A stretch of DNA of 62,793 nt, the filler included. It is 10 parts of 10 records of this genome, joined end to end, with 100 filler letters (N's around TTAATTAATTAA, not from the genome) between each part and the next. Parts side by side here need not be neighbours in the genome. Positions count along the whole stretch, not along the records: positions 17,771 to 20,225 come from SRR11831585_481; 9 more parts are not named here. One strand, given 5' to 3'. The position numbers were made by a program, and so were the translations under genes. The number at the start of each line of letters is the position of its first letter. The stretch's first letter is position 1. The notes beneath the pieces were generated by a model that was not told the origin of the DNA, did not search any database, and worked only from the letters and a program-made list of their open reading frames with translations. Shown here piece after piece: positions 3,181 through 31,010 of the stretch.

Positions 3181-3188
3181 AAACTTAT

Positions 3189-8611: not shown

Positions 8612-8622
8612 ATAACACCTGT

Positions 8623-8650
8623 AAAAAAGGCAGCCATCTGGCTGCCTTAG
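8623..8650. terminator. Intrinsic terminator between convergent fhuE and ptsG
   Basis: AAAAAGGCAGCCA-tc-TGGCTGCCTT hairpin with a U-tract on the minus strand. Confidence 0.75.
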
Positions 8651-8670
8651 TCTCCCCAACGTCTTACGGA

Positions 8671-10104
8671 TTAGTGGTTACGGATGTACTCATCCATCTC
8701 GGTTTTCAGGTTATCGGATTTAGTACCGAAAATCGCCTGAACACCAGAACCAGCAACCACTACGCCCGCTGCGCCCAGTTTCTTCAGGCCGGCCTGATCC
8801 ACTTTAGACACATCAGCAACGCTGACGCGCAGACGGGTAATACATGCGTCGAGGTTAGTAATGTTTTCTTTACCACCAAATGCAGCAACCAGAGCCGGTG
8901 CCATTTCGCTGGTACCTGTCGCTTTTGCATCTTCAGTCGCGTCTTCACGACCCGGCGTTTTCAGATCCAGTGCTTTAATCAGCACGCGGAAGATGGTGTA
9001 GTAAACAATCGCATAACCGATACCGACGATCGGGAACAGCCACAGTTTGCTGCTGTTACCAGACAGAACGATGAAGTCGATCAGACCGTGCGAGAACGAC
9101 GTACCGTCACGCATCCCCAGAAGAATACAGATTGGGAATGCCAGGCCTGCCAGAATCGCGTGGATGATGTACAGGATCGGCGCAACGAACATGAAGGAGA
9201 ACTCGATCGGCTCGGTGATACCGGTCAGGAACGAGGTCAGCGCCGCGGAGATCATAATACCGCCCACTTTCGCGCGGTTTTCTGGTTTAGCAGAGTGCCA
9301 GATAGCAATTGCGGCAGCTGGCAGACCGTACATTTTGAACAGGAAGCCACCAGACAGTTTACCCGCAGTCGGGTCACCCGCCATATAACGCGGAATGTCG
9401 CCGTGGAAAACCTGACCTGCTGCGTTGGTGTATTCACCAATCTGCATCTGGAAAGGTACGTTCCAGATGTGGTGCAGACCAAACGGTACCAGGCAACGTT
9501 CGATGAAACCGTAAATGCCAAACGCAACTACCGGGTTCTGGTAAGCAGCCCACTGAGAGAAGGTCTGGATTGCAGAACCAATCGGCGGCCAAATGAAGGA
9601 CAGCACAACGCCAGTAAAGATGGCAGCCAGGCCAGAAATGATCGGCACAAAGCGTTTACCGGCAAAGAAGCCAAGATACTCAGGCAGCTTAATACGGTAG
9701 AAACGGTTAAACATGTACGCTGCGATCGCACCGGAGATAATCCCTCCGAGTACGCCAGTATCCGCCAGGTGTTTAGAGGCGATTTCTTCAGCAGGTAAAT
9801 GCAGTACCAGTGGCGCAACCACGGCCATGGTTTTAACCATGATGCCATAGGCAACAACTGCGGCCAGCGCGGATACGCCATCGTTATTGGTAAAGCCGAG
9901 GGCGACACCGATCGCAAAAATCAGTGGCATGTTTGCAAAGACGGAACCGCCTGCTTCTGCCATAACATGCGATACAACGGCGGGCAGCCAGCTGAAATTC
10001 GCGGAACCGACGCCCAGCAGAATACCTGCGATAGGCAGTACGGATACCGGCAGCATCAGCGATTTACCGACCTTTTGCAGGTTAGCAAATGCATTCTTAA
10101 ACAT
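8671..10104 (-). CDS. ptsG: PTS glucose EIICB
   Basis: GITEPIEF and DACITRLR motifs, 477 aa. Confidence 0.98.
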
Positions 10105-10199
10105 AATTGAGAGTGCTCCTGAGTATGGGTGCTTTTTTTACGTTCTCACGCGTGGCAAGGGGGGAGAGCCTCGCCGTGTACAGGGCATCTAAGCGCCCT

Positions 10200-10260
10200 T
10201 TATTTATTACACAGAGTAAAATAATTCAGTGCCAATTTGTTTGACGGCTATCACGTTTCA
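10200..10260 (-). promoter_or_regulatory. ptsG control region (Mlc operator and CRP-like site)
   Basis: Quasi-palindrome TTATTACACAGAGTAAAATAA and TTTGA-N6-TCACG; known Mlc/CRP regulation of ptsG. Confidence 0.6.
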
Positions 10261-10398
10261 ACTTCAGATCATTGGAGAAGTTGCACATTTTGACAAAACA
10301 TATGTCACAATATTTCAAACGTGGTTATTCACCGCCCAATTTTCGGCGGTGAACTTTACTCGTTTTAGCCATTAATTACGAGCTTTAAAAAAACTCAT

Positions 10399-11196
10399 TC
10401 AACGGATGGATTGAAGGCGGGAAGCGTCGATGTGAAACAGACGGGCGAAGTTATCGGTGGTTACCTGCGCCAGTTCTTCAACGGCAACACCTTTCAACAC
10501 AGCCATGTATTCTGCAACGTCACGAACCATCGCAGGTTGATTCTCTTTTCCTCGATGCGGTACCGGCGCAAGGTAAGGTGAGTCAGTTTCCACCAGTAAC
10601 CGATCCAGGGGGACATAACGCGCAGCATCGCGCAGTTGCTCCGCATTACGGAAGGTCACAATGCCGGAAAAGGAGATGTAAAATCCGAGATCCAGTAATT
10701 TACCCGCCGTTTCTCTGTCCTCTGTAAAACAGTGTAGTACGCCACCGCAATCCGTCACTTTTTCTTCGCGCAGAATTGCCAGCGTATCGGCACGGGCGTC
10801 ACGGGTATGGACGATAACCGGCTTGTTCAGTTCACGACCAATCTGGATATGATGGATGAAGGACTCTTGCTGACGTACTTTAGTTTCCGGCGTGTAATAA
10901 TAATCCAGCCCGGTTTCACCCAGCGCTACAACACCCTCTTCTGCCGCCAGACGGCGTAAATCTTCTACATCGTAGGGATCATTCTGGTTGAGTGGATGCA
11001 CGCCACAAGAAAATACGACGTTGTCACGTTCGCCTACCAGATCCCGCATATGTAAATAATCCGGTAATGTTGTGGCGACTGCCAGACAAAATTTCACATC
11101 GCGTGCGGCGGCTTTCGCCAGAACGTCATCCACGTCCTTATGCAAAGATTCATAATCCAGACCATCGAGATGGCAGTGTGAGTCGACTAAAAACAT
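10399..11196 (-). CDS. ycfH: TatD-family metal-dependent nuclease
   Basis: DSHCH, GETGLD and ETDSPYL motifs, 265 aa. Confidence 0.96.
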
Positions 11197-11206
11197 GATG
11201 TCTCTC

Positions 11207-12211
11207 TTAAAGATGAGGAACCGGTAGCACAACGCCCGGTTGCAGGTAATGCTCAATACGCAGTAAAAGATCGGTGATGAGAAGCTCGCGGTTGATGCCT
11301 GTAACAGACATTAACTGTTCACGAATGTGGCAAACATCCCCCAGTATAGCCTGCAGGCGCGAGGGAGAAAGATGGTTTGCCAGTTCGGCGACCAGGCCCG
11401 GCACATCAACATTGGTCACCTGCGCAGCACCATGATGGCGTTTTAGCGCATCCATCAGCAACGTTGCCAGCCAGTGTAAACGCGCCGGAGCTTGTTCATG
11501 ATTAAGGGCCGCTAGCAGCGAATACCAGTCGCCCGATGGCACGCTATATGCCAACGCCTGACACAATGTTTCACGAGCCTGCCAGTTATCTCCCTGAAAC
11601 AACGCCAGTGCCGCGCCAGGCGAACCGGCGCTTAAGCGCAATGCGGCAAGTAATGCATCCTGTGACATTGTCACTTCGCGTGAAAGCCAGGTCACGGCGT
11701 ACTGTTCCGGCGGCGGCGCAAGGTAATGTAACCGACAACGACTACGTAATGTTGCCAGTAAACGTTCAGGCTCGCGGGTAGCCAGGAAAAACCAAGTTTC
11801 TGCTGGTGGCTCTTCAAGCGTTTTCAGCAATGCGTTAGCCGCGGCGTCGGTTAGTAAGGCAGCATCGGTTACCCAAACGACTTTCGCACCACCTAAGCGT
11901 GCGTGCTCATTCAGCTTTTCGGTGACCTCACGTACCGCATCAACGCCCAGCGTATTTTTTCCTTTTTCGGGAGCCAGGGTGTAGTAATCGGGATGCGTGC
12001 CAGCCTGCATCAACTGACATCCACGACAGTGACCGCAACTTTTGTGGCCCTGCGGTTGTTGGCAGAGTAAATAACGGCTCAGGGCGTAGATTAAAGCATC
12101 ATCGCCCATGCCCGGTAACGCCTGAATGAGTAGCGCATGGTGACCTCTTCCGGCCTGATAGCTGGCTACCAGTTTTTCGAAATCAGGTCGTAACCATGGA
12201 TACCATCTCAT
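11207..12211 (-). CDS. holB: DNA polymerase III delta' subunit
   Basis: CGHCRGC zinc site, [14 protein letters not shown] motif. Confidence 0.98.
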
Positions 12212-12849
12212 GCGTCCAACTCCTTCACCCAGTGGGTCACGGTAGTGCGGATTGCATCCATCACGGCCTCCAGCGGCTGGGTGGCATCAATGGTATGAAT
12301 GCTTTTATCTTGTGCTGCCAGTTCCAGATAGCGGGCGCGGGTGCGATTAAAGAAATCGAAAGATTCTTGCTCAATACGATCCAGCTCGCCGCGCGCACGC
12401 GCGCGTTTTAAGCCAACTTCCGGGGTAACATCGAGATAGAGCGTTAAGTCGGGGCGAAAATCCCCGAGAACAGCATCACGCAGTGTTGCCAGCATATGTT
12501 GGTCAATACCACGTCCGCCGCCCTGATACGCCTGAGTGGAGAGATCGTGGCGATCGCCAATCACCCAGGTGCCGTTAGCCAGAGCTGGTTTGATGACCGT
12601 TTCTACCAGTTGAACGCGCGCGGCATAAAACATCAGAACTTCGGCTTTATCGGTAATGACTTCATCGCCTACCGATTTGATATCCAGCACCAGGCTTCTT
12701 AACTTTTCGGCAAGTTGCGTACCGCCAGGTTCCCGAGTGAAAACCATGTCGCGGATACCCAGTTGCTCGAGCGTCTCAACCACCACATTACGCGCGGTAG
12801 TTTTGCCTGCGCCTTCCAGCCCCTCAATGACGATATACTTACTGCGCAT
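12208..12849 (-). CDS. tmk: Thymidylate kinase
   Basis: [11 protein letters not shown]-loop, REPGG. Confidence 0.98.
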
Positions 12850-13861
12850 TTTTTTCCTTAAGCACTTTCAGATAATCCTGCACAGACTTGTTATGACTGG
12901 CAAGATTGGTATTAAACGTGTGACCACCTTTACCATCGGCCACAAAATAGAGATACGGCGTTTTTGCCGGATGCGCAGCAGCCTTCAGCGAATCCGCCCC
13001 CGGCGTCGCTATCGCACCTGGCGGCAGACCGGTAATGGTATAGGTGTTATACGCTGTCGGCGTTTCCAGGTCTGCACGAGAAAGTTTGCCATTATAACGC
13101 TCTCCCATCCCGTAAATCACGGTCGGGTCGGTCTGCAGGCGCATACCAATGCGTAAACGGTTGATAAATACTGAGGCAACCTTATCGCGTTCACTGGCAA
13201 CGGCGGTTTCTTTTTCGATAATTGATGCCATCGTCACCAACTGGTTTTTATCTTTATAAGGCAGACCGTCCGCACGCCCTTCCCAGGCGCTATCGACCGC
13301 TTTCACCATTTTCTTGTGCGCTCGCTTGAGTAACGCGACATCGGTGGTATTGGCGGTATACATCCAGGTGTCTGGCCAGAACCAACCTTCAATCCACTCC
13401 GGGTTTTCCAGTTCAAGTGCCTGCGCTACGGTGGCGTACTTATCATCGCTCAGCGTATGCTTGATATACGGGGCCTCACGCAATTGCTTGAGGTAATCGC
13501 TCAGACGCATCCCTTCTACCAGTCGCAGAGGGAACTGTGCTTCTTTACCGCTTTCCAGCAATTTCAGCATCTCGCGCACGGTCATCTGCGGTGTAAAGCG
13601 GTAAGTCCCGGCTTTAAAGTGAGAAAGATCCGGTTCGATACGCAGCAGCCATTGAAAAACCCGTGGACGATTGATGATCTTATCGGCATAAAGCTGTTCA
13701 CCGAGCGCCAGACGTCCGGTCCCTGGCTTCAGGGTAAATATCGTCTCTTCTTTGATAAGCAATTTGCTGTCGGCAAGATGGCGAACCTTCCAGACGCCCA
13801 CACCAGCGGCGATACCCAGTACCACCAGCAATAACAAGATTATCAATAACACTTTTTTCAT
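12839..13861 (-). CDS. mltG: Endolytic murein transglycosylase MltG (YceG)
   Basis: [21 protein letters not shown] and GLPPG motifs. Confidence 0.97.
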
Positions 13862-13863
13862 GA

Positions 13864-14673
13864 CTAATTCGGGCGCTCACAAAGTGGGGCTAAATATTCA
13901 TATAACGTTGCTGACGAAAAGGAGACATCGCCACAGGCACATACGGGCATCACTGGCATTAACGCATTACAAATAACCATCTCATCTGCCTGCAACGACT
14001 CTTCCAGAGAGGCTTGCACTTCGACAAGCTGATAAGAGGATTGTGCCAGCAAACGGATACAGAATTGTCGCATAATGCCGTTAACACCTGCCTGATCCAG
14101 TCGCGGCGTATAAACTACGTTGCCCTTCCGCCAGAACAAATTAGCCGCACAGCATTCCGTAACCCACCCTTCGCTGTCAAGGACCAGCGCCTCATCAGCG
14201 TTTGTCTGCTCAAGATGAGAGCGAATCAATACTTGCTCAAGACGATTGAGATGTTTAATACCTGCAAGATGAGGATTGCGCCCCAGCCGCACCGGGCTTA
14301 GCGCCAACGTAATCCCCTCGTTACGCAAACGGTCGTAATGTGCAGGATAAGCCGTAACGGAGAGAATCCGCGTTGCCGGTCCGCTGTTCAATGTGCTGTA
14401 CCCTCGCCCGCCACTACCGCGACTGATCACGACTTTCAGCACACCATTTTGCTGTTCTGCTGCCAGCGTTTTCATCTCTTGTTCAAGCTGAGGCCAGAAG
14501 TCACAGGAAATCATCAACCGCTGACAAGCATCCTGTAGTCGCTGGATATGCGCCGATAACAAACTGACTTTACCGTCGATAACTCTGGCGGTGGTAAAAC
14601 AACCATCACCAAACTGCGTTGCCCGATCGCTTACTGCCAGCGATTCCTGCTTATGACCGTTAATTAAGAACAT
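13864..14673 (-). CDS. pabC: 4-amino-4-deoxychorismate lyase
   Basis: FGDGCFTT and KHLNRLEQ motifs. Confidence 0.97.
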
Positions 14674-14745
14674 ACCGGCTCCTTATCAGAGAATTGTTAG
14701 TGTGGCAGCATGTTCACTACGGAACAAGTCGGAATAAAAGCTAAG

Positions 14746-14771
14746 AAAAAAGGCCCGCAAGCGGACCTTTT
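14746..14771 (-). terminator. Intrinsic terminator after fabF
   Basis: AAAAAAGGCCCGC-aa-GCGGACCTTTT hairpin. Confidence 0.7.
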
Positions 14772-14792
14772 ATAAGGGTGGAAAATGACAAC

Positions 14793-16064
<1,272 letters not shown>

Positions 16065-16121
16065 CTAGTGGGACAAAAAGATAAAACTCAGGCGGTCGAA
16101 CGACCGCCTGGAGATGTTCAC

Positions 16122-16358
16122 TTACGCCTGGTGGCCGTTGATGTAATCAATGGCAGCCTGAACGGTGGTGATTTTCTCAGCTTCTTCGTCCGGAATCTCA
16201 GTATCAAACTCTTCTTCCAGAGCCATTACCAGCTCAACGGTGTCAAGAGAATCCGCGCCCAGGTCTTCAACGAAAGAAGCATTGTTGGTAACTTCTTCCT
16301 GCTTAACGCCCAGCTGTTCGCCGATAATTTTCTTAACGCGTTCTTCGATAGTGCTCAT
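16122..16358 (-). CDS. acpP: Acyl carrier protein
   Basis: LGADSLD phosphopantetheine site, 78 aa; downstream hairpin at 16089-16110. Confidence 0.99.
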
Positions 16359-16568
16359 ACTCTTAAATTTCCTATCAAAACTCGCTTTCGCGATGGTTTT
16401 CGTAGTGTATAAAATGTTGAAAAATTTGCAACTAAATCCCGGCAGGTCTTACCACGATTTTACGTTATTTTGAGGCCTTACCCCCCAATAACGCAAATCA
16501 TTTTGCACTAATTATTACTCATAACCACGCAGACTGCGCGCAACATGAGCATTTTGTGCAAATCGCGG

Positions 16569-17303
16569 TCAGACCATGTACATCCCGCCGTTCACATGCA
16601 AAGTTTCACCCGTGATGTAAGCTGCTTCGTCGGATGCCAGGAATGCAACCGCGTTGGCGATTTCCTGTGCGCCGCCGAGGCGACCCGCAGGAACCTGCGC
16701 CAGGATACCCGCACGCTGGTCATCGCTCAGCGCACGTGTCATGTCCGTTTCAATAAAGCCCGGAGCAACAACGTTTACAGTAATACCGCGTGACGCAACT
16801 TCGCGCGCCAGTGATTTACTGAAGCCGATCAAGCCCGCTTTCGCCGCAGCGTAGTTGGCCTGACCGCCATTTCCCATGGTACCAACCACAGAACCGATAG
16901 TGATAATACGACCATGACGCTTTTTCATCATAGCGCGCATTACCGCTTTTGACAGACGGAAAACAGATGAAAGGTTGGTTTCGATAATATCGTTCCACTC
17001 TTCATCTTTCATTCGCATTAACAGGTTATCACGAGTGATACCGGCATTATTGACCAGGATATCCACTTCACCAAATTCTGCGCGAATTTTTTCCAGAACA
17101 GATTCGATAGATGCCGGGTCGGTCACATTCAACATCAGACCTTTGCCGTTGGCACCTAAATAATCACTGATCGCCTGAGCGCCATTTTCACTGGTCGCAG
17201 TGCCAATAACTTTCGCGCCACGGGCTGCGAGCGTTTCAGCAATTGCGCGGCCAATTCCGCGGCTTGCACCGGTTACCAGTGCGATTTTTCCTTCAAAATT
17301 CAT
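16569..17303 (-). CDS. fabG: 3-oxoacyl-ACP reductase
   Basis: TGASRGIG, NNAG and YAAAK motifs. Confidence 0.98.
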   Translation of the reverse strand: MNFEGKIALVTGASRGIGRAIAETLAARGAKVIGTATSENGAQAISDYLGANGKGLMLNVTDPASIESVLEKIRAEFGEVDILVNNAGITRDNLLMRMKDEEWNDIIETNLSSVFRLSKAVMRAMMKKRHGRIITIGSVVGTMGNGGQANYAAAKAGLIGFSKSLAREVASRGITVNVVAPGFIETDMTRALSDDQRAGILAQVPAGRLGGAQEIANAVAFLASDEAAYITGETLHVNGGMYMV

Positions 17304-17315
17304 GATTTTCCTCTT

Positions 17316-17670
17316 TTAAAGCTCGAGCGCCGCTGCCATCGCTGAAGGTTCGTTCAGCGCCGAGGCGGTCAGGGTGTCGACAATGCGTTTCGTCAGGCCA
17401 GTAAGCACTTTGCCCGGGCCGACTTCATAGAGATGTTCTACGCCTTGCGCTGCCATGTACTCAACAGACTTCGTCCACTGAACCGGGTTATACAACTGAC
17501 GTACCAGTGCGTCACGGATGGCATCACCATTGGTTTCGCATTTCACATCAACGTTATTCACAACAGGAACTGTTGGTGCGTTAAAGGTGATTTTCGCTAA
17601 TTCTACTGCCAGTTTGTCGGCTGCTGGTTTCATCAGCGCACAGTGAGACGGTACGCTCACTGGTAACGGC
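17316..17670 (-). CDS. fabD: Malonyl-CoA:ACP transacylase (3' part)
   Basis: VSVPSHC, QLYNPVQW and EVGPGKVL; directly upstream of fabG. Confidence 0.96.
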
Positions 17671-18081
17671 NNNNNNNNNNNNNNNNNNNNNNNNNNNNNN
17701 NNNNNNNNNNNNNNTTAATTAATTAANNNNNNNNNNNNNNNNNNNNNNNNNNNNNNNNNNNNNNNNNNNNAATGCCGAAGGTCTACCGAGCTAGCCAACA
17801 CATGAGGGACATTTCTGTATGCAGATTTCTGTCAAGCTGTACAGAGTATATTCCCGGAAATTTCCTATGAACGCACGGTGTCAGAGATCTATTTTAGGAA
17901 GTTTTGACGTGAATATTCTGCTAAGGACCTATCTTATGACATTCCGGCGAAAACGAAAAAAATAGCTGACAGCAAATTCGGCGAATGTGCGCACGTCTTA
18001 TGACGGCCATACGGGCGAAAGTGCACACATATTTGCTGCAAATTGGCCGAGCTCAGTCCATTGTGGAAGCGTATCGAGAAC

Positions 18082-18795
18082 ATGTCCCAACCGCAGTCGC
18101 AAATTGTATCTCAAAATGGCCGATCGGGTGCATCTCAGATGCAGATGCAGATGGGGCCTGGTGCCTCGGGGAGCGAGAAGAAACGAGGCACGTACGTAGT
18201 GTTCCCGAAGGAGTACAAGTGTGCGGTGCTTCGCAGATTAACGGAAGAAGCGCAGAAGAGAGGATCGGACAACCCTCTGAATCTCTTCAATGCGGATATT
18301 GCAAAGATCTCGGAGGATGAACGACAACGCTACAATAGACAGCATCCAACTGCCATGTTACTGTCCGCTTGGGCCCCACCTCAGATCCGCGATTCGGTGC
18401 GCGGACATCATGAGCGCGTCAAGAAGAGAAAGGAACGCGACGGTGACGCTGCTGGCTTCGATGAATATGATGCGCTTGTGGAAAACATGTTCCGGGACAA
18501 AGAACAGGCCATGCGCACCGTGGACGACAACACACTGAATCCGGACGCCGATGGCAGGGAGGCGGAGCGTGTTTTCGCGGAACCGCAGAACGGTGCGCAG
18601 CGGAGAAAGCGTGACGATCTGTACGATGCGCAGCTAGAGCTGTACCGTTCCCACAAAGTCATGGTGGACATGATTGTGGACGCGATCCTTCCAGGTATGC
18701 AGCAAGTGCAGTCCTCAATGCAAGAGATTGCCCGTCGCGTCACCCGCGTGCTGCCTGCGGTCAACACACCCCCCCCTGCGGTCAACATCGAGTAA
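18082..18795 (+). CDS. Transposon accessory protein, putative Myb/SANT (trihelix)-like DNA-binding ORF2
   Basis: Intact 237-aa ORF from the first ATG; basic NLS-like KKRG, RVKKRK and RRKR; helical core with W...QIRD; position opposite the transposase. The domain call is inferred from context. Confidence 0.6.
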   Translation: MSQPQSQIVSQNGRSGASQMQMQMGPGASGSEKKRGTYVVFPKEYKCAVLRRLTEEAQKRGSDNPLNLFNADIAKISEDERQRYNRQHPTAMLLSAWAPPQIRDSVRGHHERVKKRKERDGDAAGFDEYDALVENMFRDKEQAMRTVDDNTLNPDADGREAERVFAEPQNGAQRRKRDDLYDAQLELYRSHKVMVDMIVDAILPGMQQVQSSMQEIARRVTRVLPAVNTPPPAVNIE

Positions 18796-18967
18796 TGTAT
18801 GTTACTGTCATGAGGGCTCTCGATTAAGTGTTTATTCGTACGTGTACATATGCTACAACTGCCAATTTTTACAACGCTACAATAAATGAGAATGGACCGC
18901 ATGTAGCGCCTTCATACTCACACAGATGCGCGACTGTACATGCGTCACATCATATTGGTTGGCGCGG

Positions 18968-20089
18968 TCACGTGTCACCAGCGCCCCTTCGGATCCACGC
19001 GCGGCGGAGGCGCATCCAGCGATTGGTCAGGATAATGCAACAGCGGAAAAACAAGGGAGCGTACATGGGATTGCCCTTGTACGGGCGGCTCACAAACGGA
19101 TACTGCTCCTTGAGGCGCGCGTGCACGTTCTCATCCTGCGCTCTGACCCTCCCCACACCGAGATTGAAGCACAGCCGATGGGAGAAGCCAAGGTCGGTGA
19201 TCAGGTACTCCCCCGCAGAGAACAGCTCGTTCGCACGCGCCGCGATGCTGCGGCTGAAGTGCCCCTGATCGTTGGTGACGCCACCCGGCACATACGAGTG
19301 GAAGATGCACACGCCGCGGTAGTCGGTCACCATCAGGTGCAGCCACAGCGCCTTCCTCTGCATGCCACTCAGGTACACGAGCTTGTTCTTGGGCCGGTGC
19401 TGCATCTGCAGGTACTGGTACGTGCCGTCCACGAACCCGATCGCTGAGGGGTGCCCATCTATGCGGTTGCGGTACTGCGTGCGGCGCGCCTCGGCGTCGG
19501 GCCAGGCGATCTCGTACGCCAGCGTCTCCACCATCGCAGACACCGTGCGGTGCACAATACGGCGCACCGTCTCCTTGTGCAGACCTGTCTGTGTCGCCAG
19601 ATAGCTCAGCTTCACGTGGCTGGCCAAGCGAGCGAGCGTGATGTAGATCTGCTCGCGGAGACCAAGCCTGCATCGAACGCCGCTCAGCGTGGGAGCCAGC
19701 TCGCGCACAAGGTCATCCAATTCACCCGGGCTGAACCGCACATTCTCTTCGTACGTGGCTTCGTGCGTGCGGATGAGCGAATCTAGAGACAGCTGGGTTT
19801 GCACCGGGTAAAAAATACGATCGTCGCGATACCCCACAGCAGAGTAACCCTTCCCACAGTTCCGCGGAGCAAGAGGGGGCACGATCATTCCGGCGATGGC
19901 CATCAGCAGCACGCGCTGAAGAAAATCTAGAACACTCAATAAATCAATACAGAGCAACAGAAGATACCAATTCCGGCCGCCCACGCCCTCCACATCGGCC
20001 GCATCTGATGACTCCATTTCACGGACCAGAACTTTGCTGGGTGCACATTCGCACGACCCCGAGAATGCCGACTCGCATGTTCGTTTCAT
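18968..20089 (-). CDS. DDE transposase, HARBI1/IS5-like (HTH_Tnp_4 + DDE_Tnp_4)
   Basis: HTH LREQIYITLARLAS...LATQTGLHKETVRRIV; IAWP; AIGFVDGT; YLSG..RK; PGG..ND; LITDLGF; R..DENVHARLK. Start uncertain (ATG 20089, 20182 or later). Confidence 0.85.
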   Translation of the reverse strand: MKRTCESAFSGSCECAPSKVLVREMESSDAADVEGVGGRNWYLLLLCIDLLSVLDFLQRVLLMAIAGMIVPPLAPRNCGKGYSAVGYRDDRIFYPVQTQLSLDSLIRTHEATYEENVRFSPGELDDLVRELAPTLSGVRCRLGLREQIYITLARLASHVKLSYLATQTGLHKETVRRIVHRTVSAMVETLAYEIAWPDAEARRTQYRNRIDGHPSAIGFVDGTYQYLQMQHRPKNKLVYLSGMQRKALWLHLMVTDYRGVCIFHSYVPGGVTNDQGHFSRSIAARANELFSAGEYLITDLGFSHRLCFNLGVGRVRAQDENVHARLKEQYPFVSRPYKGNPMYAPLFFRCCIILTNRWMRLRRAWIRRGAGDT

Positions 20090-20325
20090 CGTCAGTACGC
20101 TATTTGAGCGGAAATGGTGGCCCTGCAACAAATTCCGGGAAATTCGGCTGTCATGGGTACGGCCGAATTTTTCGACGAACATTCAGTCACTGTCATAAGA
20201 CGTGGAAAATCATGTTCGGCCGAATNNNNNNNNNNNNNNNNNNNNNNNNNNNNNNNNNNNNNNNNNNNNTTAATTAATTAANNNNNNNNNNNNNNNNNNN
20301 NNNNNNNNNNNNNNNNNNNNNNNNN

Positions 20326-20350
20326 GCCTGATAAGCGTAGCGCATCAGGC
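20326..20350. repeat. REP (PU) element at contig start
   Basis: GCCTGATAAGCGTAGCGCATCAGGC. Confidence 0.9.
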
Positions 20351-20401
20351 AGTTTGGCGTTTGTCATCAGAGCCAACCACGTCCGCAGACGTGGTTGCTA
20401 T

Positions 20402-21154
20402 TCAGATAACGTCGATTTCAGCGACTGACGGGTAAATCCAGCTGGGGCGGAAAGGCATACTGTCGATATCGTCGAGCGACGAAACACCAGAAAGCACCAG
20501 AATCGTCTCCAGACCTGCCTGGAAGCCGGCCAGAATATCGGTACGCAGGTTATCGCCGACAATCACCGTTTCTTCCGAATGCGCCTGCATTTTGTTTAAT
20601 GCTGCGCGGATGATCCACGGGCTGGGCTTACCAACATAGAACGGTTTGCGCCCGGAGATTTTCTCAATCCCTGCACACAACGCGCCACAAGCGGGATAAA
20701 AACCGCGCCCGTGGGTGTCCGGATTGGTGGCGATAAAACGTGCACCGTTAGCGACGAAATAGGCTGCTTTATGCATCATGTCCCAGTTGTAGGAACGCGT
20801 TTCGCCAACAATCACGAAATCAGGGTTCACATCGGTAATAGTGAAACCGGCTTTGTACAGTTCATGAATCAGTGCGCCTTCGCCCACCACATACGCTTTC
20901 TTGCCTTCCTGGCGACGCAGGAAATCGGCAGTCGCCATCGCAGAGGTATAAAACACGCTGTCAGGTACATCGACACCTGCGGTGGCAAAGCGGTTCGCCA
21001 GATCTTGCCCAGTCTGCGAAGGATAGTTGGTCAGCAACACCAGCGGCAGGCCTTTATCCATAATCCCGTGCAAAAATTCCGCTGCACCCGGTACGGCGAC
21101 GTTATCGTGCATCAGCACGCCGTCGATATCGCAAATTACATTTTTAATGGTCAT
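20402..21154 (-). CDS. nagD: HAD-family UMP phosphatase NagD
   Basis: DIDGVL, GKP and GDNLRTDI motifs. Confidence 0.97.
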   Translation of the reverse strand: MTIKNVICDIDGVLMHDNVAVPGAAEFLHGIMDKGLPLVLLTNYPSQTGQDLANRFATAGVDVPDSVFYTSAMATADFLRRQEGKKAYVVGEGALIHELYKAGFTITDVNPDFVIVGETRSYNWDMMHKAAYFVANGARFIATNPDTHGRGFYPACGALCAGIEKISGRKPFYVGKPSPWIIRAALNKMQAHSEETVIVGDNLRTDILAGFQAGLETILVLSGVSSLDDIDSMPFRPSWIYPSVAEIDVI

Positions 21155-21201
21155 GGACTACCCAGAATATTGACAACAATAAGCGCCACTATAAAAGCAC
21201 A

Positions 21202-22422
21202 TTAATTTTCCAGCAAATGCTGGAGCAAAATACCGTTGAGCATGGCGCGTTTTACCAGCGCAAAAGCGCCGATTGCCGAGCGGTGATCCAGCTCAGAACG
21301 TACCACCGGCAGATTAGTGCGAAACGCCTTCAGCGCCTGGGTATTAATGCAGCTTTCAATAGCAGGGAGCAGCACTTTATCGGCTTCGGTGATTTCACCG
21401 GCAATAACAATTTTTTGCGGATTAAATAAGTTGATAGCAATGGCGATGGTTTTACCCAGATGACGACCGACATACTCAATTACTTCCGACGCCAGACTAT
21501 CGCCTTTGTTCGCGGCTTTGCAGATAGTTTTGATGGTGCAGTCGTCCAGCGGCACGCGGCTCTGGTAGCCCTGCTTTAACAGATTCAACACCCGTTGTTC
21601 AATGGCAGCGTTGGCAGCGATAGTTTCCAGGCAGCCAAAGTTGCCGCAGTGGCAGCGTTCACCCAGCGGTTCGACCTGAATATGGCCAATTTCACCGACG
21701 TTGCCGTTGCGGCCAATAAAAATGCGCCCGTTAGAGATAATCCCGGCCCCGGTTCCGCGATGGACACGCACCAGAATGGAGTCTTCGCAATCCTGACTTG
21801 CACCGAAGTAGTGCTCCGCCAGCGCCAGACTACGGATATCGTGACCAACGAAACAGGTCACTTTAAAACGTTCTTCCAGAGCTTCTACCAGCCCCCAGTT
21901 TTCTACCTGAATATGCGGCATGTAATGAATTTTGCCGCTGTCCGGGTCAACAAGCCCTGGCAGGATCACCGAAATCGCGATCAGCTCGCGCAGTTTGCGC
22001 TGGTAGCTATCAATAAACTGAGCAATGGCATTCAACAGGGCATGTTCCAGCGTTTGCTGGGTACGTTCCGGCAGCGGGTAATGTTCTTCTGCCAGCACTT
22101 TGCTGCTGAGATCAAACAGAGTGATGGTGGCGTCATGACGACCAAGCCGTACGCCGATTGCGTGGAAATTGCGGGTTTCGGTGACGATGGAGATAGCGCG
22201 GCGGCCCCCGGTGGAGGCCTGCTGATCAACTTCTTTGATCAGCCCGCGTTCGATAAGCTGACGCGTAATTTTGGTTACGCTGGCGGGGGCAAGCTGGCTT
22301 TGCTCGGCAATCTGAATCCGCGAGATTGGCCCGTACTGGTCAATCAGGCGATAAACCGCCGCGCTGTTAAGCTGTTTTACGAGATCAACATTACCTATCT
22401 GAGCTTGTCCGCCTGGTGTCAT
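21202..22422 (-). CDS. nagC: ROK-family repressor NagC
   Basis: HTH plus GEIGH...CHCGNFGCLE, 406 aa. Confidence 0.98.
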   Translation of the reverse strand: MTPGGQAQIGNVDLVKQLNSAAVYRLIDQYGPISRIQIAEQSQLAPASVTKITRQLIERGLIKEVDQQASTGGRRAISIVTETRNFHAIGVRLGRHDATITLFDLSSKVLAEEHYPLPERTQQTLEHALLNAIAQFIDSYQRKLRELIAISVILPGLVDPDSGKIHYMPHIQVENWGLVEALEERFKVTCFVGHDIRSLALAEHYFGASQDCEDSILVRVHRGTGAGIISNGRIFIGRNGNVGEIGHIQVEPLGERCHCGNFGCLETIAANAAIEQRVLNLLKQGYQSRVPLDDCTIKTICKAANKGDSLASEVIEYVGRHLGKTIAIAINLFNPQKIVIAGEITEADKVLLPAIESCINTQALKAFRTNLPVVRSELDHRSAIGAFALVKRAMLNGILLQHLLEN

Positions 22423-22430
22423 ACTTTCTC

Positions 22431-24439
<2,009 letters not shown>

Positions 24440-24529
24440 TATTCACCTCAATAAGTAAAATGTAAGCCGTTGGCGGATTAGGCATCTTTAAGCGTAACCT
24501 GGATTTGCGCAGACAGGCGTCAATCCGAC

Positions 24530-24655
24530 CTGATTTTTTGAATGATAAAATAAGTTTTCTGGTTTAGCCAGTAAAAGGGAGTGATAATAACGATATTTGG
24601 TGACAAAACTCACAAAAGACACGCGTTTAATTTGCGATACGAATTAAATTTTCAC
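24530..24655. promoter_or_regulatory. Divergent nagB/nagE control region with CRP site and NagC operator
   Basis: GGTGA-N6-TCACA CRP-like site at about 24599-24614; TTAATTTGCGATACGAATTAA quasi-palindrome at about 24627-24647. Confidence 0.7.
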
Positions 24656-24771
24656 ACACTCTGTAGCAGATGATCTAACAATCTGATTACAGAACATCGG
24701 CAGTACAATTTGCAGCAAAATAAAAATACGGCTTGAAACGAGCCAAATAGGGTTCTCGTAGGGGGAATAAG

Positions 24772-26718
24772 ATGAATATTTTAGGTTTTTTCCAGCGACT
24801 CGGTAGGGCGTTACAGCTCCCTATCGCGGTGCTGCCGGTGGCGGCACTGTTGCTGCGATTCGGTCAGCCAGATTTACTTAACGTTGCGTTTATTGCCCAG
24901 GCGGGCGGTGCGATTTTTGATAACCTCGCATTAATCTTCGCCATCGGTGTGGCATCCAGCTGGTCGAAAGACAGCGCTGGTGCGGCGGCGCTGGCGGGTG
25001 CGGTAGGTTACTTTGTGTTAACCAAAGCGATGGTGACCATCAACCCAGAAATTAACATGGGTGTACTGGCGGGTATCATTACCGGTCTGGTTGGTGGCGC
25101 AGCCTATAACCGTTGGTCCGATATTAAACTGCCGGACTTCCTGAGCTTCTTCGGCGGCAAACGCTTTGTGCCGATTGCCACCGGATTCTTCTGCCTGGTG
25201 CTGGCGGCCATTTTTGGTTACGTCTGGCCGCCGGTACAGCACGCTATCCATGCAGGCGGCGAGTGGATCGTTTCTGCGGGCGCGCTGGGTTCCGGTATCT
25301 TTGGTTTCATCAACCGTCTGCTGATCCCAACCGGTCTGCATCAGGTACTGAACACCATCGCCTGGTTCCAGATTGGTGAATTCACCAACGCGGCGGGTAC
25401 GGTTTTCCACGGTGACATTAACCGCTTCTATGCCGGTGACGGCACCGCGGGGATGTTCATGTCCGGCTTCTTCCCGATCATGATGTTCGGTCTGCCGGGT
25501 GCGGCGCTGGCGATGTACTTCGCAGCACCGAAAGAGCGTCGTCCGATGGTTGGCGGTATGCTGCTTTCTGTTGCTGTTACTGCGTTCCTGACCGGTGTGA
25601 CTGAGCCGCTGGAATTCCTGTTCATGTTCCTTGCTCCGCTGCTGTACCTCCTGCACGCACTGCTGACCGGTATCAGCCTGTTTGTGGCAACGCTGCTGGG
25701 TATCCACGCGGGCTTCTCTTTCTCTGCGGGGGCTATCGACTACGCGTTGATGTATAACCTGCCGGCCGCCAGCCAGAACGTCTGGATGCTGCTGGTGATG
25801 GGCGTTATCTTCTTCGCTATCTACTTCGTGGTGTTCAGTTTGGTTATCCGCATGTTCAACCTGAAAACGCCGGGTCGTGAAGATAAAGAAGACGAGATCG
25901 TTACTGAAGAAGCCAACAGCAACACTGAAGAAGGTCTGACTCAACTGGCAACCAACTATATTGCTGCGGTTGGCGGCACTGACAACCTGAAAGCGATTGA
26001 CGCCTGTATCACCCGTCTGCGCCTTACAGTGGCTGACTCTGCCCGCGTTAACGATACGATGTGTAAACGTCTGGGTGCTTCTGGGGTAGTGAAACTGAAC
26101 AAACAGACTATTCAGGTGATTGTTGGCGCGAAAGCAGAATCCATCGGCGATGCGATGAAGAAAGTCGTTGCCCGTGGTCCGGTAGCCGCTGCGTCAGCTG
26201 AAGCAACTCCGGCAACTGCCGCGCCTGTAGCAAAACCGCAGGCTGTACCAAACGCGGTATCTATCGCGGAGCTGGTATCGCCGATTACCGGTGATGTCGT
26301 GGCACTGGATCAGGTTCCTGACGAAGCATTCGCCAGCAAAGCGGTGGGTGACGGTGTGGCGGTGAAACCGACAGATAAAATCGTCGTATCACCAGCCGCA
26401 GGGACAATCGTGAAAATCTTCAACACCAACCACGCGTTCTGCCTGGAAACCGAAAAAGGCGCGGAGATCGTCGTCCATATGGGTATCGACACCGTAGCGC
26501 TGGAAGGTAAAGGCTTTAAACGTCTGGTGGAAGAGGGTGCGCAGGTAAGCGCAGGGCAACCGATTCTGGAAATGGATCTGGATTACCTGAACGCTAACGC
26601 CCGCTCGATGATTAGCCCGGTGGTTTGCAGCAATATCGACGATTTCAGTGGCTTGATCATTAAAGCTCAGGGCCATATTGTGGCGGGTCAAACACCGCTG
26701 TATGAAATCAAAAAGTAA
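24772..26718 (+). CDS. nagE: PTS N-acetylglucosamine EIICBA
   Basis: [16 protein letters not shown] and VHMGIDT motifs, 648 aa. Confidence 0.98.
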   Translation: MNILGFFQRLGRALQLPIAVLPVAALLLRFGQPDLLNVAFIAQAGGAIFDNLALIFAIGVASSWSKDSAGAAALAGAVGYFVLTKAMVTINPEINMGVLAGIITGLVGGAAYNRWSDIKLPDFLSFFGGKRFVPIATGFFCLVLAAIFGYVWPPVQHAIHAGGEWIVSAGALGSGIFGFINRLLIPTGLHQVLNTIAWFQIGEFTNAAGTVFHGDINRFYAGDGTAGMFMSGFFPIMMFGLPGAALAMYFAAPKERRPMVGGMLLSVAVTAFLTGVTEPLEFLFMFLAPLLYLLHALLTGISLFVATLLGIHAGFSFSAGAIDYALMYNLPAASQNVWMLLVMGVIFFAIYFVVFSLVIRMFNLKTPGREDKEDEIVTEEANSNTEEGLTQLATNYIAAVGGTDNLKAIDACITRLRLTVADSARVNDTMCKRLGASGVVKLNKQTIQVIVGAKAESIGDAMKKVVARGPVAAASAEATPATAAPVAKPQAVPNAVSIAELVSPITGDVVALDQVPDEAFASKAVGDGVAVKPTDKIVVSPAAGTIVKIFNTNHAFCLETEKGAEIVVHMGIDTVALEGKGFKRLVEEGAQVSAGQPILEMDLDYLNANARSMISPVVCSNIDDFSGLIIKAQGHIVAGQTPLYEIKK

Positions 26719-26727
26719 TCTGCTTTA

Positions 26728-26760
26728 TGCCTGATGCGACGCTTGAGCGTCGCATCCAAC
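26728..26760. repeat. REP element
   Basis: TGCCTGATGCGACGCTTGAGCGTCGCATC. Confidence 0.8.
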
Positions 26761-26921
26761 AATGACAAGCGGTGGAGATCTTCTCTGCCGCTTTTTTTTT
26801 CATTCAATCATCCCCATAATCCTTGTTAGATTATCAATTTTAAAAAACTAACAGTTGTCAGCCTGTCCCGCTTATAAGATCATACGCCGTTATACGTTGT
26901 TTACGCTTTGAGGAATCCACG

Positions 26922-28586
26922 ATGAGTGAGGCAGAAGCCCGCCCGACTAACTTTATCCGTCAGATCATCGATGAAGATCTGGCCAGTGGTAAGCACACCA
27001 CAGTACACACCCGTTTCCCGCCGGAGCCGAATGGCTATCTGCATATTGGCCATGCGAAATCTATCTGCCTGAACTTCGGGATCGCCCAGGACTATAAAGG
27101 CCAGTGCAACCTGCGTTTCGACGACACTAACCCGGTAAAAGAAGATATCGAGTATGTTGAGTCGATCAAAAACGACGTAGAGTGGTTAGGTTTTCACTGG
27201 TCTGGTAACGTCCGTTACTCCTCCGATTATTTTGATCAGCTCCACGCCTATGCGATCGAACTGATCAATAAAGGCCTGGCGTACGTTGATGAACTGACGC
27301 CGGAACAGATCCGCGAATACCGCGGCACCCTGACGCAACCGGGTAAAAACAGCCCGTACCGCGACCGCAGCGTTGAAGAGAACCTGGCGCTGTTCGAAAA
27401 AATGCGTGCCGGTGGTTTTGAAGAAGGTAAAGCCTGCCTGCGTGCGAAAATCGACATGGCTTCACCGTTTATCGTGATGCGCGATCCGGTGCTGTACCGT
27501 ATTAAATTTGCTGAACACCACCAGACTGGCAACAAGTGGTGCATCTACCCGATGTACGACTTCACCCACTGCATCAGCGATGCCCTGGAAGGTATTACGC
27601 ACTCTCTGTGTACGCTTGAGTTCCAGGACAACCGTCGTCTGTACGACTGGGTACTGGACAACATCACGATTCCTGTTCACCCGCGCCAGTATGAGTTCTC
27701 GCGCCTGAATCTGGAATACACCGTGATGTCCAAGCGTAAGTTGAACCTGCTGGTGACCGACAAGCACGTTGAAGGCTGGGATGACCCGCGTATGCCGACC
27801 ATTTCCGGTCTGCGTCGTCGTGGTTACACTGCGGCTTCTATTCGTGAGTTCTGCAAACGCATCGGCGTGACCAAGCAGGACAACACCATTGAGATGGCGT
27901 CGCTGGAATCCTGCATCCGTGAAGATCTCAACGAAAATGCGCCGCGCGCAATGGCGGTTATCGATCCGGTGAAACTGGTTATCGAAAACTATCAGGGCGA
28001 AGGCGAAATGGTTACCATGCCGAACCATCCGAACAAACCGGAAATGGGCAGCCGTCAGGTGCCGTTTAGCGGTGAGATTTGGATTGATCGCGCCGATTTC
28101 CGCGAAGAAGCTAACAAGCAGTACAAACGTCTGGTGCTGGGTAAAGAAGTGCGTCTGCGTAATGCTTATGTGATTAAGGCAGAACGCGTCGAGAAAGATG
28201 CCGAAGGTAATATCACCACCATCTTCTGTACTTATGACGCCGATACCTTAAGCAAAGATCCGGCAGATGGTCGTAAAGTCAAAGGTGTTATTCACTGGGT
28301 GAGCGCGGCACATGCGCTGCCGGTTGAAATCCGTTTGTATGACCGTCTGTTCAGCGTGCCTAACCCAGGTGCTGCGGATGATTTCCTGTCGGTGATTAAC
28401 CCGGAATCGCTGGTGATCAAACAGGGCTTTGCTGAACCGTCGCTGAAAGATGCGGTTGCGGGTAAAGCATTCCAGTTTGAGCGTGAAGGTTACTTCTGCC
28501 TCGATAGCCGCCATTCTACGGCGGAAAAACCGGTATTTAACCGCACCGTTGGGCTGCGTGATACCTGGGCGAAAGTAGGCGAGTAA
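26922..28586 (+). CDS. glnS: Glutaminyl-tRNA synthetase
   Basis: [14 protein letters not shown] and MSKRK motifs, 554 aa. Confidence 0.99.
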
Positions 28587-28600
28587 TTTTAAGTTTCGCT

Positions 28601-28690
28601 ATGCCGGATGGGGCGTTTACGTCGCATCCGGCAAGGAACAGACAAACAGTTTCAAACGCTAAATTGCCTGATGCGCTACGCTTATCAGGC
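28601..28690. repeat. REP pair (BIME) at contig end
   Basis: GCCGGATG...CATCCGGC and GCCTGATGCGCTACGCTTATCAGGC. Confidence 0.88.
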
Positions 28691-28790
28691 NNNNNNNNNN
28701 NNNNNNNNNNNNNNNNNNNNNNNNNNNNNNNNNNTTAATTAATTAANNNNNNNNNNNNNNNNNNNNNNNNNNNNNNNNNNNNNNNNNNNN

Positions 28791-29123
28791 AACCTGTGAC
28801 AGATCGCGAATGAGTTTTCCTGTGATATGGGTCAAACCTGTACCCTCTACTGTGGCAGTACGCATATCAGAACCACCGCTGCTTTGAGGGCTTACAGCGC
28901 ATTGCATAGCAAAGATAGGCAATTGTACGGAATCTAACAATCTTGATACTGCATCTTTCTGAGTGATATCCACTTTTTCCCAGCGAACACGACCGTCTTG
29001 CGCTTGTGGTACATGGGAGAGATAAGTTCCCACTACCTGCGTCTCGGGAGGAATCAGCGTTGAGCGAAGGACCGCAGAACCGAGCTCGCCACTTGCACCA
29101 AACACAACGATAGTGCCTGTCAT
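28791..29123 (-). CDS. NAD(P)-dependent epimerase/extended SDR (RmlD-like), 5' part, eukaryotic contig
   Basis: MTGTIVVFGASGELG Rossmann motif, VVGTY, VDIT and VEGT; possible intron GTTTGA...TCACAG near the contig end. Confidence 0.7.
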
Positions 29124-29375
29124 TCGAAGCACATCAAGCGCAGACTGTGCTCTGCTAAGAGTCGAGAAACCCGACATAACATGCGTGTGTGTTGGAACTT
29201 TCCACCGCCACGTTTGTGTGATGAGTTTTAATGCATATCAGTAGGACACTGAGCAACGCAGCCGTAACCCCGCCACAACATATCCCCTACAACAACGCGG
29301 TCGCACTCATACACATGCTCCTCACATAAACATCCGCACATGCGTCCACTCACTCCACTCCCACCGTGCACTGAG

Positions 29376-30733
29376 TTACGCAACAGAGGAGCACGACACC
29401 GCAGAGGCACCCACAACGCCCACCACTCCCGCACAGCGCGCACACAAGCACGCCTCTGTGACGGCGTTATGTTTCCAGCAGCGTGGGCACTTGTGTTCGT
29501 TGGCGGTGGGCGCGGTGACTGCAATGCCGAGCGAGCTGAGAGAGCCTGGGACGGGTAGGGGCGATGAGTAAAGGGGTGTGTGATAAGAGTGAGGGCACAA
29601 ATATAGGGAAACATTGGAAAGAAAAACAAGTAACAAGAACGAGCGACGATAGACTCACAGCGACGAACGGGCGTCACAGAAGCACGGGGCAGGGACCACA
29701 TAGCACAACCTCCAGCAGCAACTCTACCATGCGCCCAACCACCACGAGACAACCATCATCAACTGTGACACGCGTCGCAACAGTAGTTGCATACCAGTGT
29801 GGTTCTTCACAGAGACGGTGCTTGTGTACGGGGAGGCGGGCAGTGTGGACTGTATCGTGGTCTTTGATGTGATAAACACAGAGTTCAGCTCCGCACGGCC
29901 GCTGTTGACGGAGGTCAAGAGGGGAAGTAGAGCATCTGACGGGTCGAGCGAGAGATGCACGGACGCTTCGTTGCTGGCACCGATCGTTCTGCGACAAGAC
30001 AGTATCAGCATAATTATCACGTACATCCTGCACCACATGAAGATTTGTCGCACGGAAAGGCAACGGAAAAGCCGCACACGCCCACACCAAACCTGCAGAC
30101 CAGCACGAGTTGACGCGCAATGAAAACCTACACATACAGACACTAACACACACATAACACACTCTCTCTCACTCACTCACTCACACAAAATGTAGGCACG
30201 TACTGGTGTTTGCGTGCACTCTCCAGCACCTTCTGGACCTCAGAACGCACTCGCTCCACGGCCTCCCACTCCAGAACCAGTGCGTCATTGCGGAAATGAG
30301 CGGGCTGGGGTGTGATACACACAAGCAATGTGAGTGTGTAACTCAATACAAACAAGCAATTTTTGTGTGCAGATTCAATACTTAGACGCAGTGTGCATTT
30401 CACACGATAGATACAGGCAGAATGAGGCCAGGTCGAATACAACGCCCACTGACGCAAGAAGCAAACAGACACGATAACGACCCGCCGCCCCCGCCGCTCC
30501 ATAGCGTCCCGTGACCCCACCGAACCAGCCGCCCCAGTAGAGCAAGATACGTGACGATACATACAGGCTGTGCACACAGACACAAAAGGTATCGATATTT
30601 GCCATCGTACTGTTTCTAGCAGCCAGTGCTGTCGAAACACGCTGGTAGCGGTGCGTTGTGTGGTGAACTGGTGTATGTCCTCTGCCAGATGCACACAGAT
30701 AGGGGCGATGGACTGGGTGAACCGCCGAAGGAT
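29376..30733 (-). CDS. Isoleucyl-tRNA synthetase, bacterial/mitochondrial type, 3' exons 30733-30611, 30304-30204, 29988-29795, 29545-29376
   Basis: Splicing three GT-AG introns gives in-frame IAPICVHLAEDI, VRSEVQKVLESAR, IGASNEA, ELNSVFITS and the C-terminal zinc finger KCPRCW...LCARC. Confidence 0.88.
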
Positions 30734-31010
30734 CTACAGACCGCCAATTACGTCAAGTCAACTCAAACACACAGAACGCGGGGGCGATGGGTGCGAAAGG
30801 TCACAACAGAGAGAAGAAAAGGGTAACAAATGGAATGACGCAATAGAAGCATCATGAACGGCAGACTGTACATACGAATATACAAGAGCACATAGAAAGC
30901 GAACAAAAGANNNNNNNNNNNNNNNNNNNNNNNNNNNNNNNNNNNNNNNNNNNNTTAATTAATTAANNNNNNNNNNNNNNNNNNNNNNNNNNNNNNNNNN
31001 NNNNNNNNNN

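Follow-up and report, generated by a model that had tools for sequence, protein, structure and literature searches.

This report deals with a stand-alone contig of 2455 bp that lies within a stretch of DNA of 62,793 bases, the whole of which was analysed and is called the window here, and with the transposon-like element on that contig. Two uninterrupted open reading frames (ORFs) face each other on it, tail to tail: ORF1 on the minus strand encodes a transposase of the DDE_Tnp_4 type, and ORF2 on the plus strand a second protein of 237 amino acids (aa), the stop codons of the two being 172 nt apart. An original prediction, made from the letters of the sequence, had described just this arrangement, and both frames and their convergent layout were found. 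We consider it quite likely that a cut-and-paste transposon from the PHIS (PIF/Harbinger-ISL2EU-Spy) superfamily is present on the contig in one copy; it would belong to a small and very divergent clade and most likely be of eukaryotic origin.

The two frames have the appearance of true genes. When the 2455-bp contig was simulated 2000 times with a first-order Markov model, an open frame of 404 codons never appeared (0/2000), one of 263 codons, the size of the ORF2 frame, appeared in 43/2000 (2.15%), and two frames of at least 263 codons were never found together (0/2000); the ORF2 frame thereby exceeds 97.85% of the simulated longest frames. Furthermore, the G+C content by codon position is of the coding type in ORF1 (.60/.44/.75) as well as in ORF2 (.64/.40/.63), compared to.44-.45 in the three noncoding stretches of the contig. 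It is because the simulations rarely match the two frames, and because of this coding-type pattern, that we regard both as gene-like.

The assignment of ORF1 starts from its match to the Pfam family DDE_Tnp_4, which reached 31.6 bits (E 1.5e-7) and is thus above the curated cut-off of 24.8. The protein is far from anything found in the databases searched. An exhaustive HMMER search of 1,835,955,588 representative proteins resulted in 86 matches at E<=1e-3, five at E<=1e-10 and none at E<=1e-30, the best of them showing 40% identity over approximately 140 residues (E 1.1e-24), and a word-index search among near-length proteins from 5.8 billion clusters gave nothing. When ORF1 and its 86 matches were compared with Pfam, DDE_Tnp_4 was matched by 82/87 proteins, DDE_Tnp_1 by 57/87, Plant_tran by 30/87 and HTH_Tnp_4 by 18/87. 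The catalytic residues are well preserved in this group: an alignment of 13 sequences shows no variation at D252 and D330 and a conservation of at least 90% at R347 and E351, and 64 of the 68 rows that have residues at all three catalytic columns of the 87-row alignment display D-D-E. A quick maximum-likelihood tree was calculated from ORF1 residues 141-404 and the 65 matches with at least 250 aa, excluding the 21 shorter ones (P0003 among them). In this tree, ORF1, P0001, P0002 and P0009 form a clade of four rows (Shimodaira-Hasegawa-like approximate likelihood ratio test, SH-aLRT, 96), which P0004 joins at 93.

The AlphaFold2 model of ORF1, built on the 87-row alignment, has a mean predicted local distance difference test (pLDDT) score of 78.2, exceeding 90 over most of residues 130-400, and a predicted template modelling (pTM) score of 0.70. 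According to this confident model the core is an RNase-H-like fold, with strands at residues 247-259, 277-286, 292-299 and 326-328 and a helix at 343-360. D252 is modelled in a strand, D330 just past a strand and E351 in the helix, and such a strand/strand/helix placement of the D-D-E residues has been described for PHIS transposases (PMC4482050). A Foldseek comparison of the model with the PDB gave 0 matches at E<=0.001; DDE transposases and retroviral integrases predominate among the weak rows at the top (ISCth4, Tn5, Mos1, SETMAR, intasomes), which suggests the fold class of ORF1 and nothing beyond it. The PDB sequence search with ORF1 gave nothing informative. At the N-terminus, the coding signature is weaker over the first 55 codons, residues 1-67 are without aligned relatives, and pLDDT is below 50 at residues 1-67 as well as 102-129. 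Because of the low pLDDT, the weak coding signature and the missing aligned relatives, the true start of the protein may be an internal methionine, M32 or M56.

The ORF2 protein had been predicted to be basic and helical. With 36 K+R and 35 D+E it is near neutral instead. It contains a single Trp, an N-terminus rich in Q, S, G and M that is encoded in part by (CAGATG)3, a middle part of acidic character and, at residues 114-117 (18421-18432), a KKRK motif that was spotted by eye. Its helical character is seen in a single-sequence AlphaFold2 model of poor quality (pLDDT 46.9), which is all-helical with three short helices within residues 43-94, followed by long ones at 100-120, 127-150 and 171-227; this model is too poor to use, and Foldseek returned 0 matches in the PDB at E<=0.001, so that the proposed structural route brought nothing for ORF2. 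Comparisons with Pfam found no family at E<=1, nor did any appear when the limit was relaxed to E<=10 for the entire protein and for two parts of it, the sole rows being sub-threshold ones to HTH_Tnp_Tc3_1 and TetR_C_28, and neither an NCBIfam model nor a sequence relative in the PDB was found. In a protein-language-model atlas, all six shown family-named rows for the whole ORF2 are Myb/SANT-like (0.82-0.87), as are four of five for residues 33-125 (0.81-0.86); the families near ORF2 comprise Myb_DNA-bind_4, Myb_DNA-bind_3, Myb_DNA-bind_5 and MADF. In Harbinger elements, sequence divergence is much more rapid in the partner proteins than in the transposases, and BLAST has difficulty in detecting the partners (PMC9710019, PMC9392472), and according to the Results of PMC4482050 the second ORF of the Pangu group has no known motif. 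Hence, an unrecognisable ORF2 is not in itself unusual. However, the Discussion of the same paper counts Pangu with those groups whose second ORF is of the Myb/SANT type, which makes this motif-free precedent less than clear-cut. The predicted complex of ORF1 and ORF2 scored 0.00 and is uninformative either way on binding.

Beyond the two genes, the noncoding ends of the element share repeated motifs in inverted arrangement (Table 1). Across the 62.8 kb of the window there are three exact copies of the 9-mer TCTTATGAC, and all of them lie in the two noncoding ends of the element, those of the left end inverted with respect to that of the right; by our own arithmetic about 0.5 copies would be expected by chance. 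In the tandem units of the left end, the 9-mer is followed by a CAT.C.GGCGAAA-like and then a GCAAATT.G.CGA-like motif. A perfect inverted match of at least 13 nt between the two noncoding end zones, such as the repeat CACGTCTTATGAC, was obtained in 2/1000 simulations. Likewise, these ends contain four of the window's nine ATTCGGC sites. The contig stops 21 nt outward of the right repeat arm. In Harbinger3_DR, the Myb-like protein is known to bind a subterminal site of 9 bp (PMC9710019), and the inverted, repeated end motifs found here are of the kind expected for binding sites of a transposase or its partner, for which we take them as candidates. A scan for sigma-70-type promoters picked up the same ATGACA ... 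AAAAAT pair at 17936-17963 (+) and, mirrored, at 20167-20196 (-); this pair reflects the inverted subterminal repeat and no bacterial promoter. An Rfam scan of the whole window and a tandem-repeat scan of the element contig found nothing relevant in the element contig.

Table 1. Features of the element contig and make-up of the 62,793-base window (positions along the window).
Feature	Position	Strand	Remarks
ORF1	18968-20182	-	404 aa, stop-free; DDE_Tnp_4 transposase
DDE_Tnp_4 domain	19022-19432	-	ORF1 residues 251-387
Catalytic codon D252	19427-19429	-	
Catalytic codon D330	19193-19195	-	
Catalytic codon E351	19130-19132	-	
Helix-turn-helix region	19520-19672	-	ORF1 residues 171-221; weak, sub-cut-off HTH_Tnp_4 match
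ORF2	18082-18795	+	237 aa from first ATG; frame open from 18043 (TTG start, 250 aa)
Spacer between the stop codons	18796-18967		172 nt, G+C 0.44
AATAAA	18881-18886	+	downstream of ORF2
AATAAA	18831-18836	-	downstream of ORF1
Left subterminal region	17932-18058	+	two degenerate tandem units of ~64-68 bp, each opening with TCTTATGAC
9-mer TCTTATGAC	17932-17940, 17996-18004	+	
9-mer TCTTATGAC	20192-20200	-	
13-nt perfect inverted repeat CACGTCTTATGAC, left arm	17992-18004	+	
13-nt perfect inverted repeat CACGTCTTATGAC, right arm	20192-20204		
Right subterminal region	20136-20225	-	one inverted copy of the left-end unit and right arm of the 13-nt repeat
ATTCGGC-type motifs, right end	20142, 20162, 20219		
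Element contig	17771-20225		2455 bp, stand-alone, G+C 0.553; linkers 17671-17770 and 20226-20325 on either side
Ten contigs of the window	1-5999, 6100-17670, 17771-20225, 20326-28690, 28791-30910, 31011-44016, 44117-50153, 50254-53958, 54059-58911, 59012-62793		
E. coli contigs	1-5999, 6100-17670, 20326-28690, 31011-44016, 44117-50153, 54059-58911, 59012-62793		
Artificial linkers	6000-6099, 17671-17770, 20226-20325, 28691-28790, 30911-31010, 44017-44116, 50154-50253, 53959-54058, 58912-59011		N44-TTAATTAATTAA-N44

The DDE_Tnp_4 transposase with its D-D-E triad, the convergent second ORF and the inverted end motifs are the reasons for the assignment to the PHIS superfamily, in agreement with the two-ORF PIF/Harbinger-like element that had been proposed. 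On the sequence of ORF1, the core by which this superfamily is recognised, a DDE_Tnp_4 domain that can be aligned together with the D-D-E triad, is present. The mechanism of Harbinger3_DR as summarised in PMC9710019 may serve as a model for the roles of the two proteins. By this analogy, which extends to Ping/Pong, the ORF2 protein, with its KKRK motif of the nuclear-import type and its predicted three-helix N-terminal region, would bind to the subterminal 9-bp TCTTATGAC sites; it would also bind ORF1 and carry it into the nucleus and to the ends of the element. There, ORF1 would excise the element at its termini and integrate it elsewhere with a short, probably 3-bp, target duplication.

The element is probably eukaryotic. 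Its contig gave no match to E. coli by megablast or by the more sensitive blastn among 5,426 complete genomes, no prokaryotic relative in two pattern scans covering one genome each of 185,579 prokaryotic species, no match when 72,556 plasmids were searched by tblastn, and nothing in NCBIfam at E<=1. In addition, 0 intrinsic-terminator-like sites were found. A eukaryotic origin is indirectly favoured because AATAAA follows both stop codons, because of the missing terminator-like site, and because Plant_tran is matched by 30/87 proteins of the ORF1 group.

Among the known systems, the PIF/Harbinger elements (zebrafish Harbinger3_DR, rice Ping/Pong, Medicago MtPH) come closest, since they share the DDE_Tnp_4 transposase of approximately 400 aa with an upstream helix-turn-helix (HTH), the second ORF, and short inverted repeats together with repeated subterminal motifs. 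Complete elements in Medicago measure 2,180 bp or more and have terminal inverted repeats (TIRs) of 12-22 bp (PMC2213677), and the present element falls into this size range. TIRs of 12-50 bp at the element ends are a PIF/Harbinger trait; the 13-nt perfect repeat looks subterminal, and the right end of the element is cut off by the contig end. Differences are found in ORF2, in which no Myb/SANT/MADF (trihelix) domain could be detected and which is shorter (237 compared to approximately 300-400 aa), in the 3-bp TWA target-site duplication, which is not readable here, in the D-to-E linker of about half the usual length, and in a transposase whose identity to anything found does not exceed 40%. 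That the two ORFs of Harbinger elements are often convergent, as had been stated, was not confirmed: we found no statement on orientation in the literature consulted, and PMC2213677 gives a variable gene order.

Within PHIS, groups are defined by features of the termini, TIRs and target-site duplications (PMC4482050). Pangu also has two ORFs and a transposase in which the DDE motif alone is recognisable, as here (PMC4482050), but it is defined by 5'-ANT-3' duplications and a tree position beside IS5, and NuwaI and NuwaII by CWG and C|TNA|G duplications, respectively. ISL2EU shares a related DDE core and two ORFs with the element, and differs by the THAP finger in its transposase, the YqaJ exonuclease as second ORF and 2-bp duplications (PMC4122938, PMC4482050); neither THAP nor YqaJ was found by Pfam in ORF1 or ORF2. 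Spy has a related DDE core and an N-terminal HTH too, but consists of one ORF and inserts between AAA and TTT without duplication (PMC4122938), whereas two coding-like ORFs are present here. Bacterial IS5 elements possess a distantly related DDE fold. They are recognised by their presence in prokaryotes or plasmids and by curated insertion sequence (IS) models, neither of which was found for the convergent gene pair described here. The pair may finally be likened to HARBI1/NAIF1, ALP1/ALP2 and HDP1/HDP2, each consisting of a transposase-derived protein and a partner derived from gene 2. However, these pairs are host genes that are conserved, occur in single copy and lack terminal repeats, in contrast to the repeated end motifs of the present element.

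It must be mentioned that several observations weigh against the interpretation as a PHIS transposon. They concern the transposase itself: the gap between D330 and E351 comprises 20 residues and is the second shortest among the 64 D-D-E rows (median 37.5), and the Pro of the signature quoted for PHIS, D..K..D..D..P..R(3)E (PMC4122938), is absent from ORF1. Because of the short linker and the absent Pro, ORF1 could be catalytically impaired. From the aligned sequences, the short linker looks like a clade trait taken to the extreme, given gaps of 26-29 residues in the clade mates. Of the HTH+DDE transposase that the original prediction had seen, the DDE part is well supported, whereas the match to HTH_Tnp_4 (18.3 bits, E 0.0017) remains below the cut-off of 27, though the model shows confident helices at residues 175-220. 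For ORF2, no Myb/SANT/MADF match exists in Pfam even at E<=10, and a word-index search found no match with the whole protein, or with residues 33-122 at E<=5, a search which covered near-length proteins, the exhaustive HMMER run having been made for ORF1 alone; the atlas scores reach at most 0.88 and are rated by the atlas itself as no more than leads. Of the other families that had been named for the two ORFs, DDE_Tnp_4 was thus recovered, and Myb_DNA-bind_4/5, MADF and YqaJ were not.

The same holds for the ends. When one mismatch is allowed, TCTTATGAC is not enriched across the window, where it occurs 16 times against 9.9 expected, a number that is reached by 6/100 shuffles. The 13-nt repeat looks subterminal, the motif order of one end mirrors that of the other imperfectly, the triplets beside the two arms differ (GCG and GAA), and neither a direct 3-bp target-site duplication nor a defined terminus can be read in the 2455-bp contig. 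No second copy of the element is present in the window. Moreover, the trinucleotide signature does not clearly tie its contig to the two other contigs that are foreign to E. coli (r 0.57-0.63, compared to r 0.49-0.66 with the E. coli contigs of the window). Some details of the original prediction find no support. The TAA/TTA target duplications are not readable; sites at 17671-17770 or 20226-20325 are no such duplications because these stretches are artificial linkers, the neighbouring TTAATTAATTAA being part of the assembly linker. A TAA/TTA duplication beside the TCTTATGAC copies was considered and rejected as well: the TTA next to each TGAC lies within the inverted repeat on both arms and therefore reflects repeat symmetry, not a direct duplication. 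A compact and complete element of approximately 2.35 kb is not supported either, since 20225 is the contig end, the right terminus lies at or beyond it, and the left terminus is undefined. Recent activity, which had been thought possible, is not backed by a single copy in hand with an unusually short D-to-E linker.

Given these points, one could assume that the contig carries an immobile relic or a domesticated Harbinger-derived pair, comparable to HARBI1/NAIF1, ALP1/ALP2, HDP1/HDP2 or the linked pairs of insects, the frames of which are kept by host selection. The lack of a target-site duplication and of a clear TIR at a defined end would agree with this, as would the shortened catalytic linker with its lost Pro and the one copy seen, and linked, co-domesticated pairs of a transposase and a MADF protein are documented (PMC9710019). 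However, the D-D-E triad of ORF1 is intact, and the 9-mers and the 13-nt inverted repeat sit precisely in the noncoding ends, where a host gene pair would have no reason to retain them. Domesticated forms often lose the catalytic triad. The short linker is common to the clade mates and hence a trait of the lineage rather than decay, and the contig breaks at its repeat-bearing end, which may reflect the behaviour of assemblers at multi-copy DNA. We therefore regard a relic or domesticated pair as unlikely. Similarly small is the chance we would give to ORF2 being a chance frame in G+C-rich DNA or an unrelated gene, in which case the transposon would have one gene as in Spy. It is true that ORF2 has no homologue or domain in the searches run, that its model is poor and found no fold match, and that frames of at least 263 codons turn up in 2.15% of the simulated contigs. 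But its G+C by codon position is of the coding type, unlike the flanks, it sits between the left subterminal repeats and the stop codon of the transposase with its own downstream AATAAA, and its named atlas neighbours are repeatedly Myb/SANT-like, albeit with weak scores. Furthermore, two ORFs are the rule in most PHIS groups and the partners diverge fast (PMC4482050, PMC9710019, PMC9392472).

That the contig is a prokaryotic insertion sequence of the IS5 family, carried by E. coli or by some other bacterium or a plasmid present in the sample, appears highly improbable to us. DDE_Tnp_4 and PHIS are related to the bacterial IS5 family (PMC4122938), seven of the ten contigs in the window are E. 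coli, and more than half of the ORF1 group (57/87) touch DDE_Tnp_1. Nevertheless, the complete E. coli genomes, the plasmids, the species-representative prokaryotic genomes and NCBIfam (E<=1) all remained without a match. The convergent orientation of the two genes across a spacer of 172 nt, the count of 0 intrinsic-terminator-like sites and the Plant_tran matches in 30/87 related proteins argue against it as well.

The PHIS transposon thus remains our preferred interpretation. Judged by its sequence, it is a new and very divergent family of a known superfamily and as such an ordinary kind of mobile element. With regard to the new lineage or new partner protein that had been suggested, the distance of ORF1 from all searched proteins supports the former, whereas novelty of a motif-free partner is not supported in view of the Pangu precedent (PMC4482050). 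If correct, our interpretation would add a very divergent family to a well-known superfamily, with five matches below E 1e-10 among 1.84 billion representatives, and would provide a compact transposase-partner pair with candidate 9-bp binding sites that is open to direct mobility tests. A more far-reaching proposal is that the element, together with P0001, P0002 and P0009, founds a compact PHIS clade with about half the usual D-to-E linker, a new helical DNA-binding or adaptor protein instead of a Myb/SANT partner, and a protist host lineage in which DNA transposons are barely known; we consider this unlikely.

The composition of the window has to be kept in mind for all questions related to the host. 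It contains 18 runs of exactly 44 N, arranged in nine pairs around the 12-mer TTAATTAATTAA, and these linkers place stops in all six frames. The ten contigs are unrelated and joined by linkers, hence adjacency across the linkers is biologically meaningless; likewise, fabG/fabD and nagD/nagC, which flank the element contig, are unlinked to the element because linkers separate the contigs. Seven contigs correspond to complete E. coli genomes over 100% of their span with 99.9-100% identity. For six of them the best match is a K-12 laboratory strain (DH5alpha, MG1655, ER1709), and for contig 59012-62793 a human-derived E. coli O176:H45 isolate (99.9%). This suggests, from sequence identity, that the E. 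coli contigs are cloning-host or culture DNA co-assembled with the DNA of another organism. As the record consists of concatenated small contigs, mostly E. coli, the host of the element should not be assumed.

Three contigs, the element contig, 28791-30910 and 50254-53958, have no megablast match among the 5,426 complete E. coli genomes. The latter two resemble each other in trinucleotide signature (r 0.83). Contig 50254-53958 contains three open stretches on the plus strand in the same frame (51067-51708, 52240-52893 and 52999-53958) with stop-containing gaps between them. Two of the stretches match the CUB domain (52.2 bits, and a sub-cut-off 16.8 bits), and the whole resembles a multi-exon gene of a eukaryote, or else a pseudogene. 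Contig 28791-30910 harbours the start of a Rossmann-type/epimerase-like ORF with a weak Pfam match, which runs from 29183 down to 28791 (-) and leaves the contig, preceded by approximately 1 kb of GT/CA- and pyrimidine-rich noncoding DNA. A weak Anticodon_1 match at 30173-30733 (16.2 bits, sub-cut-off) was considered as a clue to the host and dropped, the upstream frame being closed. The CA/TG- and pyrimidine-rich intergenic DNA of the foreign contigs is, as we presume, reminiscent of kinetoplastids. In this group, Merlin elements are the sole DNA transposons reported according to PMC8101967.

The remaining observations refer to the E. coli contigs. The best E. coli matches annotate an IS150-family transposase under contig 31011-44016 and an IS1-family transposase under contig 59012-62793, and the match of the latter falls into two pieces on either side of IS1. 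Contig 31011-44016 also carries a cspA thermoregulator RNA element (32305-32732, -) and a tRNA-Pro(CGG) gene (43929-44005, +), both of which are ordinary features.

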